Part shown: positions 4,128 to 53,275 of the stretch, one piece after another
Position numbering within the stretch: position 1 is the stretch's first letter
Layout of the letters: each line of letters begins with the position of its first letter
Virus genome (UHGV): UHGV-0205694
Reading direction: 5' to 3' (one strand)
DNA length: 53,275 nucleotides
From: a virus
Position numbers and translations under genes: made by a program
The notes under the pieces: model-generated
Seen by the model: only the letters and a program-made list of their open reading frames with translations
Told to the model about the DNA's origin: nothing
The model's database searches: none

Positions 4128-5240
4128 GTGTTTAACGGTTCTAATTTGCGATTGGCTCGTCTGTATCATGAGTTATCACTGGAGCAAGTAGCTGAGCGGG
4201 TCGATAAGACCCGCCAGTACATTCAGCGGCTGGAATCCGGTTCGGCTGTGCCTACTCCTGAGCTTGCGAATAAATTAGCTGCCGTATTGCTGGTCACGCC
4301 TGAATTTTTCTCAGTGCAAGAGCAGTCTCCAGTGAATGAAGAGCTCGTTCACTTCCGCAAGCGTAGTTCAACACGCATGGCTACTAAGTTGGCGACGCTT
4401 GCTAAAGCTGAATTATATCGCCGCCTCATTGAAGTTTTTGAAGAGTACTTGAATTTACCGCCAGTAAGATTTCCTGAACTGAGAGTAAATACTCAAGAGG
4501 ACATAGAAAGAGCCGCTGAGAAATGCCGGACTGATTGGGGATTAGGTTTTGGGCCGATTGACAATATGACTCGACTTGCTGAAAAGCTGGGAGCATTTGT
4601 TACTTCTTTCGATTCTGTCTCTGATGATGTGGATGCGCTTTCTGTTCCTTTAAGCCGGCCATTCATTGTAAGAAATACGGCTAAAAAATCGCCTTGCCGT
4701 CAGCGTTTTGATATTGCTCACGAAGTAGCACATTTGATTTTGCATGAAGGTATTTCAACGGGAGATCGGGTAACTGAATCTCAAGCTAACCGTTTTGCAT
4801 CGGCATTGCTTTTACCCCGTTCGGCGATGGCAAAATATTTCCCTCGCCCAATTGGTGGTCGTATCGACTGGCAAGGGCTGAGTCAATTTAAATTGACATG
4901 GAAAGTAAGTAAGGCAGCAACAATTTATAGGGCGCATCAGCTTTCTCTCTTAACCGATGCCCAATATAAAACGGCATTCTTCGGTTTAAAGCGCAAGGGG
5001 GAAGCAATTGATGAAAAAGAGGATTATTTGATTCCTAATGAAAAGCCTGAGCTTTTTCATAAGGCAATGAAGTTTCTCTTAACGGATCTGTCTGTTGATG
5101 TTGAGTACTTAGCCAAGCGTTTGTGTATTACCCCGACGATGTTAGCAGAGTTAGCAAACGATAATACGTTAGATTTTGCCCGAGAAGTCGCTAACGAAAA
5201 TGTCGTTTCTCTGTCTGCATACCGAATGAATACCGTTTAA
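4128..5240 (+). CDS. XRE-family HTH fused to an ImmA/IrrE-type (M78) zinc metallopeptidase, 370 aa
   Basis: N-terminal HTH (LSLEQVAERVDKTRQYIQRLESG); HEXXH motif HEVAHLILHE in the C-terminal half, the COG2856-like arrangement. Confidence 0.75.
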   Translation: MFNGSNLRLARLYHELSLEQVAERVDKTRQYIQRLESGSAVPTPELANKLAAVLLVTPEFFSVQEQSPVNEELVHFRKRSSTRMATKLATLAKAELYRRLIEVFEEYLNLPPVRFPELRVNTQEDIERAAEKCRTDWGLGFGPIDNMTRLAEKLGAFVTSFDSVSDDVDALSVPLSRPFIVRNTAKKSPCRQRFDIAHEVAHLILHEGISTGDRVTESQANRFASALLLPRSAMAKYFPRPIGGRIDWQGLSQFKLTWKVSKAATIYRAHQLSLLTDAQYKTAFFGLKRKGEAIDEKEDYLIPNEKPELFHKAMKFLLTDLSVDVEYLAKRLCITPTMLAELANDNTLDFAREVANENVVSLSAYRMNTV

Positions 5241-5253
5241 TCTAGTTGTAAAG

Positions 5254-5279
5254 AGATCCCGCTTTGGCGGGATTTTTTA
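5254..5279 (+). terminator. rho-independent terminator
   Basis: ATCCCGC-TTTG-GCGGGAT stem-loop followed by TTTTTAT. Confidence 0.6.
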
Positions 5280-5339
5280 TGTGTAATATTAAATAACTAA
5301 TTGATTTATATAAATTTATTTTGAAAAAGGAAAGTTTTA

Positions 5340-5606
5340 ATGAAGATTCGCCTCACAGTGACAGTTAGCGCTTATGGCCAGGGTGATAACCCTTTGTTTA
5401 CAAGATTGATATTTGTAGATAAAGACCTTACTAATGCGCCTCCGATAGAGGTTTTTGTGGAAGGATTACAAATGGAGTTGCTTCCTGATTTTCAAAAAGA
5501 AAACAGTAGTATTGCAAGCATTGCGGTTGAATCAATTGTGATTATTGACAGCGGAAAAAGCGTCGCGCATACAGTCTGGCCGAAGCCTGATAAAAAAGGT
5601 GCATAA
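5340..5606 (+). CDS. hypothetical low-GC moron protein (88 aa)
   Basis: AT-rich ORF with an AT-rich leader. Confidence 0.35.
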   Translation: MKIRLTVTVSAYGQGDNPLFTRLIFVDKDLTNAPPIEVFVEGLQMELLPDFQKENSSIASIAVESIVIIDSGKSVAHTVWPKPDKKGA

Positions 5607-6216
5607 ATCTGCATTCATATGTACAAAATTTAGGATGGTAATTTTTCAAGAGCAGACCAGATGGGTGGGTCTTCCGGTGGTCTGCACATTTGCACAAAAA
5701 AGCGGGGTTTCTGCGTGCGTGCGGGCGAGGCGGGGAGTTGGTGATACCTAAATCCCCTACAGTGACAAAAACCATAAAACGCAAACACGCTATTTGTTAT
5801 CAACAAACCGCAGGTTTGTATTTATGCGAATGATAACCAGGAAGAAACCCGCCTTTACTGGGCTGTATCAGACAGGCGTACTGACTCGCATAGCTGCTGT
5901 AAAAAGTCCTGATGGTGGCGGCTTGCGATTGTTCAGTTTGTGGGGGAGGCAAGGATATAGCTGTGTTTGTGAAGGCTGCTCGCGGAGGAATCCGCGAGTG
6001 GTCTGGTCTCGACTACCTTGCTAACTTCTGCGCGAGCTGCGGAATCAGCCTCTGGGAGATTCACAACAAGGTCACAGAAAAACCGCCGCAGTGATATATA
6101 ATCCCCTCCACACAAGAGTGGGCTTGTGTCGAAGTGGAGCCTCTCCCTCCGGCTTTACATGTAAAATGCGCATTAGTGAACTTTGGACGCAAGGGAAACA
6201 ACAGTTGGTATAGTAT

Positions 6217-6537
6217 ATGAATAAAACATTACTTCTGGTTTGCGCTGTTCTTATATCAAACTTGGCACTTGCTGTAGAAAATAAAGAAGAAATAGTGCCT
6301 GTGCGTATAAGTTGCCCTTTCCCTTATTATCCAGCTTCTGCTATGGCTAATAAGATTAGCGGCACTGTAACATACTCTGCCGAAGTAAATGAAAAAGGAG
6401 AAGTTACTTCTGTTGATACAACTGGCACTGAGATCTTTTTTAGAGAAACTAGATCAGCAATCCGGAAATGCAAGTTTGAGCCAGGAAGACCGGGCATTGC
6501 CCGTGGAACCATAAGATTTAGGCCGTATCAACCGTAA
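6217..6537 (+). CDS. secreted stand-alone TonB C-terminal-domain protein (106 aa)
   Basis: Signal peptide MNKTLLLVCAVLISNLALA. The YPASAMANKISGTVTYSAEV...FEPGRPG region parallels the TonB C-terminal domain (YPARAQALRIEGQVKVKFDV...YEPGKPG). Low GC. Confidence 0.6.
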   Translation: MNKTLLLVCAVLISNLALAVENKEEIVPVRISCPFPYYPASAMANKISGTVTYSAEVNEKGEVTSVDTTGTEIFFRETRSAIRKCKFEPGRPGIARGTIRFRPYQP

Positions 6538-7043
6538 GAGCTCCTAACTTTTTGGGGAAGTTACCTCTGGAACTATGCTTCGCAAGAAGATTTAGATGCA
6601 CATGACATGTTTTATCTATTTCCTGCATAGATTATCTGGTTTTTCTTGCATATGTATGGCGATAAACCTTGCTATTGTATTGGCATTTGGGCTTTACCTA
6701 CAGGCGCGCTCAAGCAAAACATCATGTACCCGCTTCAGTGGGGCTTTTCGCATATGCTCATTTTGCATTTATCCCCAAGGCGAGCGATTATTACCTCGTC
6801 AGCCTGAACACCTGATACCTGTTATCCGGCTCCAAGTGGGGGCACATGGCGCACAAAACCTTAAAGCAATTCCTGTCACCGATGGCGAAAGTCACCGGAT
6901 ATTTTCTGCATTCACCATTTGGCCTCTGCGGAGGTGAAGCGTGAACATTCCTCAAGAAGGCATCAAACTCCATCGCGGTAACTTTTCGGCTATTGATGAA
7001 TACCTACAGCCATATCTGGCGAATGGCGATACCTACTGACTAA

Positions 7044-7226
7044 TACTCAAGCCGCGGCGTGAAATATGCAAAGGATAAGCAGGTCGCGCGCTGTGGCAAT
7101 GCCGTCCCGCCGCCGTTTGCTGAGGCGTTGGTGAGGGCTAATTTACCTGAATTATGTCAAAAGAAAGACCCGCCACCTGATATATATTATAAAGCTGAGA
7201 ATGCAACTGTGTTTGAAATTTGTTGA
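7044..7226 (+). pseudogene. C-terminal remnant of a C5-cytosine DNA methyltransferase
   Basis: Translates to ...KYAKDKQVARCGNAVPPPFAEALVRANLPEL... (motif X, GNAV-PP) with no upstream remainder or start codon. Confidence 0.45.
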
Positions 7227-7433
7227 ATGAAATTATTGAAGTGAATTTATGTGGCGCGCTTATCATTATATAGCTTTAGGTTAAATTATTTGGAAAACTC
7301 TCAATTTGAAAATAGTTAAATCTTTTCTCCATTAAAGCTGCTATTGTCTCTTATGAAAGGGACCCATCAGGTACCAGAGCCTTCTGGTACTTGATTTTTA
7401 AGTCTATCGCTTAGGGAAGATTGAGGGTTTGCC

Positions 7434-7727
7434 ATGGCTAATGATTCACGAGGAAATGAAGTGATCTTCAATCGTGCATATCTAAACTTATGCTTTAAAA
7501 ACAAAAAATTAAGCCCGTTGGTTATAGTGGGGAAAATTAAAGAACACAATATTGTTGAATGTTTTTCTTTTGGTCTTAAGGGTACGATAGATATTGAGTC
7601 AAGATGTCTTTTTTTGCGTTATAAATATCCGTGGCCAGATTTTGAAATTGAACTGGTTAGAAAAAAAGGAGGTGATTATGAGTTCATGCTCTTTCATAAT
7701 TATTTTCTTAAGGGTATTGGCAATTAA
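7434..7727 (+). CDS. hypothetical AT-rich ORF (97 aa)
   Basis: Only an ORF inside a 1.5-kb AT-rich stretch. Confidence 0.2.
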   Translation: MANDSRGNEVIFNRAYLNLCFKNKKLSPLVIVGKIKEHNIVECFSFGLKGTIDIESRCLFLRYKYPWPDFEIELVRKKGGDYEFMLFHNYFLKGIGN

Positions 7728-8017
7728 GACATTTATAATGCTTTTTTAATAAAAATGGATTTCCCTAGACTATATGACTTAGGTGTCTTTTTTCTTGAAC
7801 CTGTCTATAAATAACATTCAAAGAGTATGGCGTACTTTCCGACGCTTCTATCAAATAATTGTAGTGTCGCTAAACACTTATATTTGGCCTCCATGTAATT
7901 AAAAAATGTACTTCTAAATGACTCTTTTGAACTCACATGAGTTGGTTGAATTTTGTTCATCGCGACCTATGCTCCTGTCCATATATAAAGCTATTGTCTA
8001 AAAAAAACCATAAAATC

Positions 8018-8045
8018 AACCCGCTACGGCGGGTTTTCTTTTCCC
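8018..8045 (+). terminator. rho-independent terminator
   Basis: AACCCGC-TACG-GCGGGTT stem followed by TTCTTTT. Confidence 0.45.
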
Positions 8046-8106
8046 ATTCCTGACAAAAATTAACGTTTTGTGCTCTTAAGATATTGAACATTCAGTAAGT
8101 TAGGTG

Positions 8107-8126
8107 TACTGTTTATTTATACAGTA
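8107..8126 (+). promoter_or_regulatory. LexA box (SOS operator) upstream of the dinI-like gene
   Basis: TACTGTTTATTTATACAGTA is a near-perfect match to the CTGT-N8-ACAG consensus. Confidence 0.7.
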
Positions 8127-8148
8127 TATCGAACGGGGGGGTGATACC

Positions 8149-8382
8149 ATGAGAATCGAAGTAACCATCGACAAAGCTAAAAAACTGCCTACCGGTGCTG
8201 AACCAGCGTTAGAGGCCGAATTCCTGCGGCGATTAAATCAAAAATATGATGATTGCAAATTATCTATTCGTCGCGCGGGTGCTGATGGACTCAGTGTTTT
8301 CGGTGGCATAGATGGCGATAAAGAAACCATTGCAGAAATTCTACAGGAGACCTGGGAAAGCGCCGACGACTGGTTTTATTGA
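8149..8382 (+). CDS. dinI: DinI-family protein
   Basis: MRIEVTIDKAKKLPTGA...LSVFGG...ETIAEILQETWESADDWFY matches E. coli DinI; LexA box upstream. Confidence 0.8.
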   Translation: MRIEVTIDKAKKLPTGAEPALEAEFLRRLNQKYDDCKLSIRRAGADGLSVFGGIDGDKETIAEILQETWESADDWFY

Positions 8383-8437
8383 GTATTTTTATTGGCGGCG
8401 GCCTTTCTCCCAGAGCATCGCATTTGCGTTACCCTTG

Positions 8438-8737
8438 ATGCTGCCGCCCGTTTTCATGAGTGCGTCAGTGTGTCGCTCAGGGGGTAATGTGACTGATGGT
8501 ATTGAGGTTCCTACTAATCATTCCTGGTACGATGTTGTCAGGAGATCGGATGGCGCCATTATTTGTAGCTTCCCGGCCGAAGGAAGGCATCTGATTTACA
8601 GGGCTAATGGCATAATTTCAATGCGTCCATTATTGCCCGATGAAGAAATATTTACTCTAAACGGATTTATGAAGTTTGCTGAACGACTCGGCTACCGAGT
8701 TTTTCCACCTTCTGATAATATGAAATCAACGGCCTGA
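8438..8737 (+). CDS. hypothetical protein (start uncertain)
   Basis: ORF downstream of dinI; the longest version overlaps dinI, so an internal Met was chosen. Confidence 0.3.
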   Translation: MLPPVFMSASVCRSGGNVTDGIEVPTNHSWYDVVRRSDGAIICSFPAEGRHLIYRANGIISMRPLLPDEEIFTLNGFMKFAERLGYRVFPPSDNMKSTA

Positions 8738-50391: not shown

Positions 50392-50600
50392 CAGTGGGTA
50401 CCTGCCGGAACGAGATAGGGCGCAAGCTCCCTTGAGTAAAAGGGCTGACGGATAAAGCGCAGATTTCCCTGCGGTTCATGGAAATAGGTTTTGCGAACAT
50501 GGTCGTATGAAACAGACCAGGGCGCGCCGGTGCGCGGATTACGCATTGGTATTGCGCGACCGCTGTTTGGAACTGGATTAGCCATAGATAACCCCCGCAA
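50391..50600 (-). CDS. small hypothetical protein
   Basis: ORF in the early leftward operon. Confidence 0.25.
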   Translation of the reverse strand: MRGLSMANPVPNSGRAIPMRNPRTGAPWSVSYDHVRKTYFHEPQGNLRFIRQPFYSRELAPYLVPAGTH

Positions 50601-50748
50601 TGCATATGATGAATAAAGGCCATAAGATGAGCCCGATAACTACCGAAATGACCAACGAACGAATGCCGTTTCTACTCATTTCAACCTCTGCCTTGTCGCC
50701 GGCTAGCGGAACGTTGCTACCTACTGCGCATTGATATTTCCACCTCAT
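50578..50748 (-). CDS. small hypothetical protein with C-terminal TMD; first gene after PL (start uncertain)
   Basis: Hydrophobic SLVISVVIGLILWPLFIICIAGVIYG; lies downstream of the PL-like promoter. Confidence 0.25.
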   Translation of the reverse strand: MRWKYQCAVGSNVPLAGDKAEVEMSRNGIRSLVISVVIGLILWPLFIICIAGVIYG

Positions 50749-50818
50749 CCCGGCATTCGTATGCTCCGGGCAGCTACTTCGTGGGCGTCCTGCCTTGGTG
50801 GCTTGTTGCGATGGAGTA

Positions 50819-50881
50819 ATTAAACACAATGTTTATTTTTATGTCAACAAAATGAGTTGATTTAGATAAACAAAAAGTTTA
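50819..50881 (-). promoter_or_regulatory. PL-like promoter with two operator palindromes (OL)
   Basis: Minus strand TTGACA (plus 50843-50848), ~17-18-nt spacer, TTTAAT. Palindromes are TAAACACAATGTTTA (50821-50835) and TAAACAAAAAGTTTA (50867-50881). Confidence 0.5.
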
Positions 50882-50958
50882 GTTGGGGGCGTTTTTTGGC
50901 AGGGGTAGCATGTTTTTAGTTCTTTTATTGGGCGGAAAATAGACAGTTGAGGTGAGCT

Positions 50959-51168
50959 ATGGACTATGAGGAAGCTGCGCAACTACGCTATCAAGAAATG
51001 TGCCGGATTGTAGGTGATGTCGTATTTGCGATGGTAGCTGAAGGGCATGAAACCAAAAGAGTGGCTATAGCTGACGTGATACGAACGGAGGTATCGAAGG
51101 GGCTGGGTAAGTGGGATGCTGACCAACTACAGTGCACGGAGCTTGCTGTGAAGTTGCCGGAAGAGTAG
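50959..51168 (+). CDS. small hypothetical protein on the opposite strand (69 aa)
   Basis: GAGGTG Shine-Dalgarno; lies between PL and the leftward terminator. Confidence 0.3.
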   Translation: MDYEEAAQLRYQEMCRIVGDVVFAMVAEGHETKRVAIADVIRTEVSKGLGKWDADQLQCTELAVKLPEE

Positions 51169-51173
51169 GGGCA

Positions 51174-51199
51174 ATAAAAACCCGGCTCGGAGGCCGGGT
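51174..51199 (-). terminator. rho-independent terminator ending the repressor operon
   Basis: Minus-strand ACCCGGCC-TCCGAG-CCGGGTT hairpin followed by TTTTT. Confidence 0.55.
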
Positions 51200-51211
51200 C
51201 AGTAAAGAAAC

Positions 51212-51589
51212 TTAAGCGGGTAAGTAGAGATACGATTGTGGCGGTTTAATGTTTCCGCCTAAGTCAGAGATGGGGAGAGGCTCCTGATAGCGTTCGACTT
51301 CACCGATCTTTATAGCGTATGCCTTGTCTCTGCCCGAGTAGTAACTATCAAAAAACTGTTTTGATATACCAGCATATTTTTTCGTTTCATTCCATAAAGA
51401 CTCTGGCTCTCCGGAAAGGATAGTTTCTATTTGGAACTGACCAACGACTTTACCAAGAGGCATTGTGGCATAGATTATAACAATGCTGATCTCTTGATTT
51501 TTAAAAATACCTTTTCGAAACTCAAATCGTTTAGTCCCATCCAAAATTTTTTCTGCAAATTCTGGCTTAATGGATAATAAAACTTTCAT
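51212..51589 (-). CDS. ASCH-domain (PUA-like) protein, 125 aa
   Basis: MKVLLSIKPEFAEKILDGTKRFEFRKG... is the canonical ASCH N-terminal strand motif; overlaps the upstream gene by 23 nt. Confidence 0.65.
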   Translation of the reverse strand: MKVLLSIKPEFAEKILDGTKRFEFRKGIFKNQEISIVIIYATMPLGKVVGQFQIETILSGEPESLWNETKKYAGISKQFFDSYYSGRDKAYAIKIGEVERYQEPLPISDLGGNIKPPQSYLYLPA

Positions 51590-52628
51590 TTATACGACCT
51601 AACTCTATGATCTTAAAAAACTGCTCATCAGTAAGTTGAAAATGACTCCATCTAAATCCACGAGCACCATTTAAACCGACCTGATCAATAAGACTAGCAC
51701 GATTTGGACGTTTAGGTAAAGATATGTTATAGGAAAAGCGTATAACATAGGGGTAACGCTTATCTTTGTAAAAACCTCTGAGCTCCTCTTCAGAGAAGAC
51801 GCTAAAGCGAAGGCAGTATTCGACAAAGCTATCTTCATTTCGAAAATCATCAATGGTTTTTACTGACTCGACGACACAAATCGTGGATGCGACTGCACGG
51901 TAGTGCGCTGGGCCTTGCCCATCTCCTGTGCGATAGATAACAATAATATCGCCCCTGTTCATGCGGGTAACTGTTGGCATCCCACAAATGTATATTTTAT
52001 GTATGCTGTTTGCGTGAGAGATGTCTTTAACAATATCTGGTGATTCGTTAATAAGCTTGGAGTCAGGGAATAGTCTTGTATGATAATCTGGATAAATAGC
52101 AAGAAGGTATTTATTTACTTTCGCTGTTAATATTCTGGGATAATCCAACAGGATATCACCGTAGACATCATGCAAGGAGCGAGCATATACATACTCTTTT
52201 CCATTATGCGTTTCTTTTTCACCATGCACATAAAAACCATAGGTTTGGAAGAGTTTTATTAGGTGGGCATGTTTATCAAACACTGTGACGTATATGTCAT
52301 CAGAACCAGATGAAAAAGCATGGTCAAAGGCTTTTTTTAAGAAACGCTGCCCCCTAAGTGTTCCCTTTGACTCGAACTTAAATGTACCTATCTTTAAATG
52401 ACGGCCGTGAGGCAATTTGGGGCTTATGTCGTCGGCATCATCATTTTCCTTAAGGTACATGAATCCTTCAATTTTGTGATTTTCATCGTAGAGAATGTAG
52501 GCGGATTCATTAGCGTCGGCTTTTTTCTTGAGCCAATCAGGGAACTCTTTGTAATCACTCTTCAATGAATCAAAAAATGGGTCGTTATGATCAAATTGAG
52601 AGAAACTTTCATACCTTAAGCTATCCAT
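51567..52628 (-). CDS. GNAT-like acetyltransferase N-terminal domain fused to a PUA-like C-terminal domain (353 aa)
   Basis: LKIGTFKFESKGTLRGQRF...FDKHAHLIKLFQTYGFYVHGE fits GNAT motifs A/B; C-terminal RMNRGDIIVIYR... reads as a beta-rich PUA-like fold. Low GC. Confidence 0.5.
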   Translation of the reverse strand: MDSLRYESFSQFDHNDPFFDSLKSDYKEFPDWLKKKADANESAYILYDENHKIEGFMYLKENDDADDISPKLPHGRHLKIGTFKFESKGTLRGQRFLKKAFDHAFSSGSDDIYVTVFDKHAHLIKLFQTYGFYVHGEKETHNGKEYVYARSLHDVYGDILLDYPRILTAKVNKYLLAIYPDYHTRLFPDSKLINESPDIVKDISHANSIHKIYICGMPTVTRMNRGDIIVIYRTGDGQGPAHYRAVASTICVVESVKTIDDFRNEDSFVEYCLRFSVFSEEELRGFYKDKRYPYVIRFSYNISLPKRPNRASLIDQVGLNGARGFRWSHFQLTDEQFFKIIELGRINESFIIH

Positions 52629-52696
52629 GTGCCCTCACTTATAATCGAAAATCTCACATTATATTAATGTCCGTAAATCATTCAGATGTTTACAGT

Positions 52697-53092
52697 TCAT
52701 TCACCGTCACCCTTAATCCTTCGCCCCATGTACTTGGCATACAGCTCATCAAGTTCCTTCAGCCGCAGAGATACGATCCGCAACATGTTTTGCTGCTCTT
52801 CTTCATTCGGTAGCTGGTTATAGAGCTCCAACAGTCTCCGCTCATCTGGCCTCAAGCCATCTTTAGAATCGACGTCCTGCCCCAAAACCCACTCAAGACT
52901 AACACCTAGCGCATCAGCAAGTTTTATTGCAGAGCTTTTCCCGATCGCTCCTCTAACAAACCAGTTGTTAACAGATTGCGAGCTCACACCACAGATCCTC
53001 GCTATATCAGCTTTAGATATGCGCTTCTGCTCAATGATTTCGTTAAGCCGCTTTACCTGCGGGTTATCTGCTTGGTGCGTATTTTTTCTCAT
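52697..53092 (-). CDS. cI-type prophage repressor, HTH-XRE only (131 aa), no S24 autocleavage domain
   Basis: HTH ISKADIARICGVSSQSVNNW; divergent from a Cro-like gene with operators between; no GDSM...K peptidase segment. Confidence 0.75.
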   Translation of the reverse strand: MRKNTHQADNPQVKRLNEIIEQKRISKADIARICGVSSQSVNNWFVRGAIGKSSAIKLADALGVSLEWVLGQDVDSKDGLRPDERRLLELYNQLPNEEEQQNMLRIVSLRLKELDELYAKYMGRRIKGDGE

Positions 53093-53104
53093 ATATCACG
53101 ATTT

Positions 53105-53168
53105 TAAACTAAAAGTTTATCGCCTCAACATTCATAAAGTTGACAATAAAATAAACATAATGTTTAAT
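53105..53168 (+). promoter_or_regulatory. OR/PR region: two operator palindromes and PR
   Basis: TAAACTAAAAGTTTA (53105-53119) and TAAACATAATGTTTA (53152-53166); TTGACA 53140-53145, 17-nt spacer, TTTAAT 53163-53168; GGGAG Shine-Dalgarno before ATG 53197. Confidence 0.55.
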
Positions 53169-53196
53169 TTGTGGTGTAACTTAAAGGGAGTGGTTT

Positions 53197-53275
53197 ATGA
53201 ACGCACTTGAAAGAGCCATACATATCGCCGGTGACGCTACAAAACTGGCTGAAAAATTGGATGTTTCCTCAATGA
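53197..53275 (+). CDS. Cro/YdaS-like HTH protein, N-terminal part (runs off the window end; continues in frame at 3..155)
   Basis: MNALERAIHIAGDATKLAEKLDVS (YdaS/Cro-like HTH) directly downstream of PR. Confidence 0.55.
   Translation, partial: MNALERAIHIAGDATKLAEKLDVSSM

Follow-up and report, generated by a model that had tools for sequence, protein, structure and literature searches.

A GevT/GevA-like GNAT-EVE and ASCH gene pair, a probable toxin-antitoxin-like cassette, behind the repressor of a temperate genome of the Klebsiella-phage type

The virus genome UHGV-0205694, analyzed here as a single stretch of 53,275 nucleotides (nt; hereafter, the window), carries two overlapping genes directly behind its prophage repressor gene, which encode proteins of 353 and 125 amino acids (aa; hereafter, the pair). 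The pair is an orthologue of the already catalogued GevT/GevA cassette and not a new system. It is probably a toxin-antitoxin-like cassette that is made in the lysogen and serves exclusion or abortive infection, incidentally stabilizing the prophage. This reading follows from the GenBank annotation of homologues, the obligate pairing of the two genes, the conserved overlap between them, their mobility, their location in prophage cargo and defense slots, and a transposon sequencing (Tn-seq) study that included Dickeya. The pair consists of the following features, identified from open reading frames (ORFs) and profile matches:

51567-52628, minus strand: GevT-like gene, 353 aa, PDC-M11A, phrog_6345, putative toxin
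52164-52628, minus strand: GNAT-fold domain of GevT, residues 1 to about 155
51570-52136, minus strand: PUA-like reader domain of GevT (EVE/ZmASCH class), residues about 165 to 353
51567-51589, minus strand: out-of-frame overlap of 23 nt between the 3' end of the GevT gene and the 5' end of the GevA gene
51212-51589, minus strand: GevA-like gene, 125 aa, ASCH domain, PDC-M11B, phrog_3136, putative antitoxin

The ORF list agrees with the coordinates, the strand, the 23-nt overlap and the same-strand position behind the repressor that had been given in a preliminary description of this DNA. That description did not recognize the combination as a named system, but it is catalogued in PADLOC as PDC-M11A/B and is a GNAT-EVE plus ASCH operon of the kind described earlier (PMC7641849). 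The 353-aa protein matches PDC-M11A (PDLC04419) with an E-value of 7.9e-134, residues 2-352 aligning with positions 10-356 of the 357-position profile, and the 125-aa protein matches PDC-M11B (PDLC04425) over residues 1-123 (E 3.7e-51); the two genes are adjacent and on the same strand. Both proteins are also present as PHROGs families, phrog_6345 and phrog_3136, with function unassigned there. In Escherichia phage PhiR47_2 (PV340567.1), the homologues, encoded right after cI, are annotated as "GevT toxin" and "GevA antitoxin". The window proteins are 82.2% (residues 1-353) and 85.6% (residues 1-125) identical to this pair in a tblastn comparison, and nucleotide identity to the E. coli lambdoid phage copy is about 74.7%. 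The same E. coli pair is found in phages 4A7, Lambda_4C10, D2, 1W and 3W. The name PhiR47_2 resembles those of temperate phages (PhiR40.1, PhiR47.1) of the SNIPE paper, where the panel is from Brenes & Laub 2025. Literature searches for GevT, GevA, GevTA and GNAT-EVE turned up no paper on the named system, and the one paper found for PDC-M11 merely lists it among the predicted systems of an O157:H7 strain.

The domain architecture has been described under a different name. Bell, Wolf & Koonin 2020 (PMC7641849), following Iyer et al. 2013, reported that the operons of (PIN)-GNAT-EVE proteins nearly always have an ASCH gene and that the PIN-less GNAT-EVE form is common in beta- and gamma-proteobacterial prophages. 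These operons were predicted to be toxin-antitoxin systems (Iyer 2013; Bell 2020), none of which had been characterized by then (PMC7641849). The toxin-antitoxin-like reading offered in the preliminary description is supported by the GevT/GevA annotation, and it gains further from the strict pairing and from the essentiality of the ASCH gene in Dickeya, both detailed below.

At E <= 1e-5, homologues of the 353-aa protein form 1444 clusters and those of the 125-aa protein 2194 clusters (90% identity), so that both genes are real and not chance ORFs. Loci were compared in two sets, a genomic one with one genome per species (214 relatives, with counts made on the best 80, which show 45-74% identity) and a viral one from IMG/VR (222 relatives, with counts made on the best 80 loci). 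Because neighbors were identified by naive ORF calling, the neighbor counts are descriptive and do not represent independent events. The IMG/VR loci, among which are copies 97-100% identical to the pair on contigs of about 53 kb, are partly redundant (many near-identical E. coli copies) but include at least three repressor types. The best 80 genomic loci come from gamma-, beta-, alpha-, delta- and epsilon-proteobacteria, Bacteroidota, Firmicutes, Verrucomicrobia, Acidobacteria and Myxococcota, and the mean pairwise identity across phyla is about 50% for each protein.

Both genes are kept in all 159 loci with sufficient sequence (80 genomic and 79 viral); the remaining viral locus, L145, ends inside GevT. 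Among the 80 genomic loci, all of which have the ASCH gene, it lies directly downstream on the same strand in 77. In the other three (L015, L017 and L025, from Vibrio and Photobacterium), the ASCH gene is on the opposite strand, 0.04-2.3 kb off. Of the 77 co-directional pairs, drawn from about 80 species across many phyla, 70 overlap by 23 nt and the other seven by 29 or 35 nt, a difference that may be an artefact of start-codon choice. Together with the conserved N-terminus of GevA (M1 and L4-E10, at least 95% conserved), the 23-nt overlap points to a constrained translational coupling.

The pair is present in 275 of 5426 complete E. coli genomes (about 5%), with one chromosomal copy each, and copies are also found on plasmids. 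In E. coli O157:H7, for which the copy L002 maps to NC_013008.1 2930851-2932267, the pair lies within a ten-gene prophage segment that was reported to be exclusive to clade 8 (PMC8553066). A distant relative of GevT occurs in an archaeal virus, Methanothermobacter phage psiM100 (AF301375.1 8716-9594), where the 'inserted fragment IFa' encodes it as ORFD (E 1e-15; 26% identity with 83% of the query covered).

The domain assignments made in the preliminary description hold up, with a GNAT-like N-terminus and a PUA-like C-terminus of the 353-aa protein recovered in an AlphaFold model, a match to PaiA and structure comparison, and the ASCH domain of the partner recovered by Pfam. For the 353-aa protein, Pfam yields only a sub-threshold GNAT match. 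The AlphaFold model, built from an alignment of 36 GevT-family sequences (A1), has a mean predicted local distance difference test score (pLDDT) of 88 and a predicted template modeling score (pTM) of 0.86, and the GevT family profile matches the GNAT protein PaiA (1TIQ) with an E-value of 6e-5. In the PaiA alignment, the position of the acetyl-CoA motif (Q/R-x-x-G-x-G/A) reads K88-G-T-L-R-G93 in GevT, and Phe127 stands opposite a Tyr of PaiA, four residues ahead of the G-F motif. GNATs often have a catalytic Tyr at this position. R92, G93, R95, H120 and Y130 of GevT are invariant across A1. There is no match to a PIN domain in the 353-aa protein, in which the GNAT domain begins at residue 1, and GevT thus belongs to the PIN-less, prophage-associated subclass.

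In structure comparison, the best match of the C-terminal domain of GevT is ZmASCH (score 13.2), followed by the EVE proteins 2gbs (11.5), 1wmm (11.4) and 2ar1 (11.1), THYN1 with 5-methylcytosine DNA (10.8), VcaM4I (10.0), the YTH readers of N6-methyladenosine (about 9), McrB's N-terminal domain (6n0s; 8.7), the ASCH domain of TRIP4 (7.5) and YqfB (7.4). These matches identify the domain as a PUA-like reader of the EVE/YTH/ZmASCH class. Against the GevA family, hhalign finds only a 20-residue match covering the first strand and helix (probability 20%), and the sequence likeness of the two reader domains is confined to this strand-helix unit ("LLSIKPEF" in GevA and "LLAIYPDY" in GevT); their kinship therefore rests on structure and not on sequence.

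The 125-aa protein matches Pfam ASCH (E 4.2e-6) and, in a search of PDB sequences, ZmASCH (E 1.4e-14 over residues 3-123). ZmASCH (PDB 5GUQ/5GUS) binds nucleic acids and, in vitro, cleaves single-stranded RNA in a Mg-dependent manner; its nucleic-acid activity depends on Tyr47, Lys53 and Ser128, with Tyr47 and Ser128 examined by mutation, and Gln127 is a modeled RNA contact (PMC5615036). Residues Y40, Q118, S119 and R25 of GevA correspond to Tyr47, Gln127, Ser128 and Arg32 of ZmASCH and, along with the motif G18-x-K20-x-x-E23-x-R25, are at least 95% conserved among 81 GevA homologues. The best NCBIfam match of GevA is to NF008917 (E 2.5e-14), namely, to the 'unknown domain' at the C-terminus of a family of ribosomal protein L22 fusions, a match that appears to link GevA-type ASCH proteins to the ribosome or ribosomal RNA.

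The analogy with the rexAB slot of lambda, which had been drawn in the preliminary description, is borne out by the viral loci. The upstream neighbor of the pair is co-directional in 78 of 79, usually at a distance of 0-100 nt; 53 of these neighbors contain HTH_3, 32 an S24 peptidase domain and 20 a CI-type helix-turn-helix (HTH) domain. The slot is alike in E. coli lambdoid prophages, where cI is on one side of the pair and the kil/gam/bet genes are on the other. Dickeya 186-like prophages have, in this order, CI, an unknown protein of 260 or 358 aa, GevT, GevA and integrase. The 260/358-aa protein lacks a Pfam domain, is encoded co-directionally and tightly spaced (L083 4893-5969; L085/L086 4217-4999), and may be either a third component or separate cargo. 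In the P2-like Salmonella phage SopEPhi (L088 3944-5408), orf12 and orf13 are a homologous pair (43% identity) flanked by the gene A/DinI-like region and the portal gene. This is the P2-type moron slot, where P2 has old and tin.

The neighbors of the genomic loci vary widely: 10 loci have AAA_17 ATPases, 5 have phage integrases and 3 have S24 repressors. Matches to about ten kinds of defense proteins flank these loci on each side (E <= 1e-8), including type I and type III restriction-modification, SoFic, ThsA, LmuA, DRT, CapP, RmrT and several PDC candidates. As part of the favored reading, and with the same degree of confidence, the pair is likely a self-contained, horizontally mobile two-gene cassette and, in the window, an AT-rich cargo of the prophage immunity region.

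Functional evidence comes from Tn-seq of Pectobacteriaceae, in which the essential genes of prophage 1 of D. dadantii 3937 were the CI repressor gene Dda3937_01765 and the ASCH gene Dda3937_01763 (PMC13566846). Two proteins of strain 3937 have consecutive accessions, ADM97071.1 (an ASCH protein) and ADM97072.1 (a GNAT family acetyltransferase), and both share 90% clusters with homologues of the window pair. A downstream gene that is essential next to an upstream partner that can be lost typifies an antitoxin, a role that the essential ASCH gene of the Dickeya lysogen fits.

The pair is embedded in an immunity region that comprises the following additional features:

53105-53119 and 53152-53166, no strand assigned: oR operators, exact TAAAC-N5-GTTTA palindromes (palindrome scan)
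53128..53101, minus strand: PRM-like promoter site between the oR palindromes (promoter scan)
53125-53152, plus strand: PR-like promoter site at oR, divergent from the PRM-like site (promoter scan)
52697-53092, minus strand: prophage repressor, 131 aa, with an HTH_3 / Phage_CI_repr helix-turn-helix (ORF list and profile matches)
52629-52696, minus strand: spacer of 68 nt between the repressor and GevT genes (read from sequence)
51179-51200, minus strand: intrinsic-terminator-like hairpin, 8-bp stem with 6 GC pairs, then TTTTTATT (terminator scan)
50959-51168, plus strand: DUF2767/FumD-like gene (PRK10292), 69 aa (ORF and profile match)
50821-50835 and 50867-50881, no strand assigned: oL operators, exact TAAAC-N5-GTTTA palindromes (palindrome scan)
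50847..50842 (TTGACA) and 50824..50819 (TTTAAT), leftward: PL-like promoter with a 17-nt spacer (read by eye)

The four exact copies of TAAAC-N5-GTTTA in the 53-kb window are found only at 50821, 50867, 53105 and 53152, and with one mismatch there are 7 matches in the window versus 1.3 expected by chance. The confinement of these operators to oL and oR identifies the immunity region, and since the sites bracket this region, the 131-aa HTH protein is identified as the prophage repressor. A profile search detected no S24 peptidase domain in it. The repressor gene comes first in the predicted leftward transcript of the lysogen. The -10 hexamer of the PRM-like site ends at 53101, 9 nt ahead of the repressor ATG (53092), and the repressor mRNA may be leaderless or almost so, like that of lambda cI. 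The PL-like promoter, which the oL operators overlap, was passed over by the promoter scanner, the second base of its -10 hexamer being T.

The terminator scan found no terminator-like site between the repressor gene and the 353-aa gene. From this and from the gene spacing, we infer that the repressor and the pair are co-transcribed. Within the spacer, a GAGGG Shine-Dalgarno sequence precedes the ATG of GevT, and a TATAAT hexamer suggests a possible extra promoter belonging to the pair itself. The terminator-like hairpin (51200..51179) starts 12 nt past the stop codon of the ASCH gene and has a T-run after the stem; it is the predicted end of the repressor-GevT-GevA unit. The preliminary description had placed a terminator before PL. 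The hairpin is present as described, but it does not directly adjoin PL: the DUF2767/FumD-like gene, which is convergent with the pair, sits between the terminator and oL/PL. The promoter region of this gene overlaps the operator at 50867-50881, and P22-like Salmonella phages carry homologues of it (about 81% nucleotide identity) that are annotated inconsistently.

The window is a temperate genome of the Klebsiella-phage type, with RecE/RecT. The AT-richness of the pair relative to the phage backbone, already pointed out in the preliminary description, is confirmed: its GC content is 39.0% versus 50.6% for the window, which places it in the lowest 2% of equal-sized windows. A related Klebsiella phage whose repressor is the same (83% nucleotide identity) has the slot filled instead with an IS1 element and small ORFs, which marks the pair as exchangeable cargo. 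An Rfam search of 50400-53275 gave no match, and no tRNA genes were found in the window. A second AT-rich island, with GC content down to 37.5% around 7150-8570, extends over 4128-8737; it encodes a fusion of HTH and Peptidase_M78 (ImmA/IrrE-like) domains (4128-5240), a small protein with a TonB_C domain (6217-6537) and a DinI-like protein (8104-8382), also holds several small ORFs without a family match, and is probably additional cargo.

Under the favored reading, the pair would be transcribed leftward with the repressor, possibly from its own promoter too, up to the terminator at 51200-51179, and hence would be made in the lysogen, with the overlapping GevT and GevA frames tying the amounts of the two proteins together through coupled translation. 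GevT would be the toxic effector. Its reader domain would bring it to a target in nucleic acid, with a modified base of tRNA or some other RNA as the likeliest candidate and DNA as a less likely one, and its GNAT domain would transfer an acyl group to this target, resulting in growth arrest. It is the combination of a GNAT fold with a modified-base reader in GevT that points to acyl transfer onto nucleic acid. As for the target, tRNA is the most economical guess because modified bases abound in it and aminoacyl-tRNA is what the known GNAT toxins acetylate (cited in PMC7641849). GevA, a stand-alone reader of the same structural class as the C-terminal domain of GevT, would keep GevT harmless, acting either at the substrate, by shielding, competing or processing, or through a complex with GevT that involves the cleft. 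Given that the nucleic-acid cleft of GevA is conserved across phyla, we infer that action at or through the substrate site is preferable to that of a featureless plug. A superinfecting phage might then upset the balance, whereupon GevT would arrest the cell, amounting to abortive infection or exclusion; the same pair would make loss of the prophage costly.

A more specific version of this scheme, in which GevT is a nucleic-acid acyltransferase whose reader finds a modified base, either in tRNA or in nucleic acid of an incoming phage, and GevA neutralizes it not by plugging the enzyme but by occupying the ligand that the two share or by processing it, is speculative, and we consider it rather unlikely. 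If true, it would mean a substrate-shielding antitoxin and prophage immunity through nucleic-acid acylation. To our knowledge, neither has been demonstrated for any defense system.

Several observations weigh against the favored reading. No paper was found that shows toxicity or defense by GevTA, the names being GenBank annotation only, and PDC-M11 is a candidate, not a validated, system. The GNAT domain appears atypical, so neither acetyl transfer nor the donor and chemistry can be taken for granted. Co-transcription with the repressor is deduced solely from the missing predicted terminator and the gene spacing. The Dickeya evidence can be questioned on three grounds: the correspondence of Dda3937_01763 to ADM97071.1 is presumed; a small gene may escape transposon insertion by chance; and the authors of the Tn-seq study suggest that the ASCH protein acts to block the production of virions (PMC13566846). 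With regard to location, many chromosomal copies sit among housekeeping genes, and in the Lactobacillus prophage Lj965 (L089 3307-5402) the pair is not next to a repressor but right after four tRNA genes (Ser, Glu, Tyr and Phe), upstream of the small terminase gene, a tRNA cluster that may hint at a tRNA target or be a coincidence.

The preliminary description suggested that the pair is an acetyl writer and eraser. In this arrangement, which is akin to DarTG, GevT would acetylate a base or nucleoside (for example, to N4-acetylcytidine) and GevA would deacetylate it like YqfB. The fusion of a reader to the GNAT domain does point to a nucleic-acid or nucleoside substrate, and the strong conservation of the GevA cleft is expected of an enzyme as well as of a specific binder. 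YqfB is a true ASCH-fold amidohydrolase with a Lys-Thr-Glu triad, in which Thr24 is the nucleophile, the Thr24Ala mutant is inactive and only Ser substitutes (PMC6972931). When GevA 11-25 is aligned with YqfB 12-26 (hhalign, probability 1.3%), K20 and R25 fall on K21 and R26, with the spacing of the shared ASCH motif, but Glu23 takes the place of the nucleophile Thr24 in G-x-K-x-x-T-x-R. No YqfB chain is among the PDB sequence matches of GevA at E <= 10, and for the solved homologue ZmASCH, which binds nucleic acids and cleaves single-stranded RNA, amidase activity is not reported in PMC5615036. A YqfB-type N4-acetylcytidine amidohydrolase identity of GevA was therefore rejected. GevA may use a different hydrolytic mechanism, but the writer-eraser explanation as a whole is improbable.

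Less credit still is due to the explanation that the pair serves prophage maintenance only, either as an addiction module without anti-phage specificity or through an ASCH protein that keeps the prophage silent as an RNase or regulator. The block on virion production suggested by the Tn-seq authors would suit it, as would the cleavage of single-stranded RNA by ZmASCH-type proteins in vitro, the fusion of some ASCH partners to HTH domains (PMC7641849) and the general tendency of toxin-antitoxin modules to stabilize mobile elements. However, the pair is equally conserved in chromosomal loci without phage genes among the checked neighbors, where silencing of a prophage would make no sense; it occupies known prophage defense slots and often has defense genes as neighbors; and PADLOC includes it among its models of known and candidate defense systems. 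Moreover, addiction and defense are not mutually exclusive. The least credible of the alternatives is that the pair serves the phage itself by nucleic-acid modification or counter-defense, marking or masking modified bases, with the ASCH protein as a regulator or partner and not an antitoxin. Bell et al. raise the possibility that GNAT-EVE proteins protect phages from host restriction-modification (PMC7641849), EVE-class domains read modified DNA bases (THYN1, VcaM4I), and the Lj965 pair adjoins phage tRNA genes just ahead of the small terminase gene. In the window and in most phage copies examined, though, the pair is part of the lysogenic unit behind the repressor and not of early or late lytic operons, many chromosomal copies have no phage genes among their checked immediate neighbors, and essentiality of the ASCH gene in a lysogen better suits an antitoxin.

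The closest relatives of the toxin-antitoxin-like cassette favored here are the GevT/GevA genes of E. coli lambdoid phages, which share with the window pair the gene order, the overlap and the slot directly after the repressor on the same strand. The surroundings differ: the backbone of the window is Klebsiella-phage-related with RecE/RecT, whereas theirs has Exo/Bet/Gam; their cI has an S24 peptidase domain, whereas the 131-aa repressor of the window is HTH-only; nucleotide divergence is about 25%; and the window has the DUF2767 gene between the terminator and oL. Some PDC-M11A profiles include an additional N-terminal region of 90-155 residues that is missing in the window protein. The (PIN)-GNAT-EVE plus ASCH operons have in common with the pair a GNAT-like domain, a C-terminal EVE-class domain and an ASCH gene in the operon, but the window pair is without the PIN domain and without the AAA_17 ATPase. 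In ZmASCH, a sequence homologue of GevA with conserved cleft residues that is also the best structural match of the C-terminal domain of GevT, an ASCH protein has been studied alone, as a nuclease of single-stranded RNA.

The type II GNAT systems TacAT, AtaRT, KacAT and ItaRT likewise consist of a GNAT-fold toxin curbed by a small protein from the same operon, and by analogy a similar mode of action, acyl transfer that blocks translation, is possible for GevT. However, their toxins are single-domain proteins, whereas that of the window is twice as long and has a reader domain; their antitoxins are of the ribbon-helix-helix/DUF1778 type and encoded upstream, whereas that of the window is an ASCH protein encoded downstream; and the acetyl-CoA motif of the window toxin appears atypical, with Phe127 at the position of the PaiA Tyr. 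Membership in the TacT-type GNAT toxin-antitoxin systems was rejected on account of the downstream ASCH partner and the two-domain 353-aa toxin. With lambda cI-rexA-rexB, the window shares cargo co-oriented with the repressor and a terminator before oL/PL, and in both cases the cargo is presumably expressed in the lysogen. RexAB are a sensor and a membrane ion channel, in contrast to the soluble enzyme-like and reader-like proteins of the pair. A PADLOC scan of both window proteins gave only PDC-M11 families, so homology to RexA or RexB was dismissed, and only the genomic position is common.

The window copy adds little on its own, being orthologous to a cassette that has been catalogued and occupying a place where prophage cargo was known before. 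The GevT/GevA family, for which no paper giving a biochemical function was found, merits attention for its unusual conservation, its strict pairing, the recurring 23-nt overlap and its presence in about 5% of complete E. coli genomes, and it is a good experimental target. Working out the cellular effect of GevT, with its GNAT domain and modified-base reader, and the way in which the ASCH protein counters it would define a new toxin-antitoxin and defense chemistry, and would also provide the first physiological role for ASCH proteins of the ZmASCH type.

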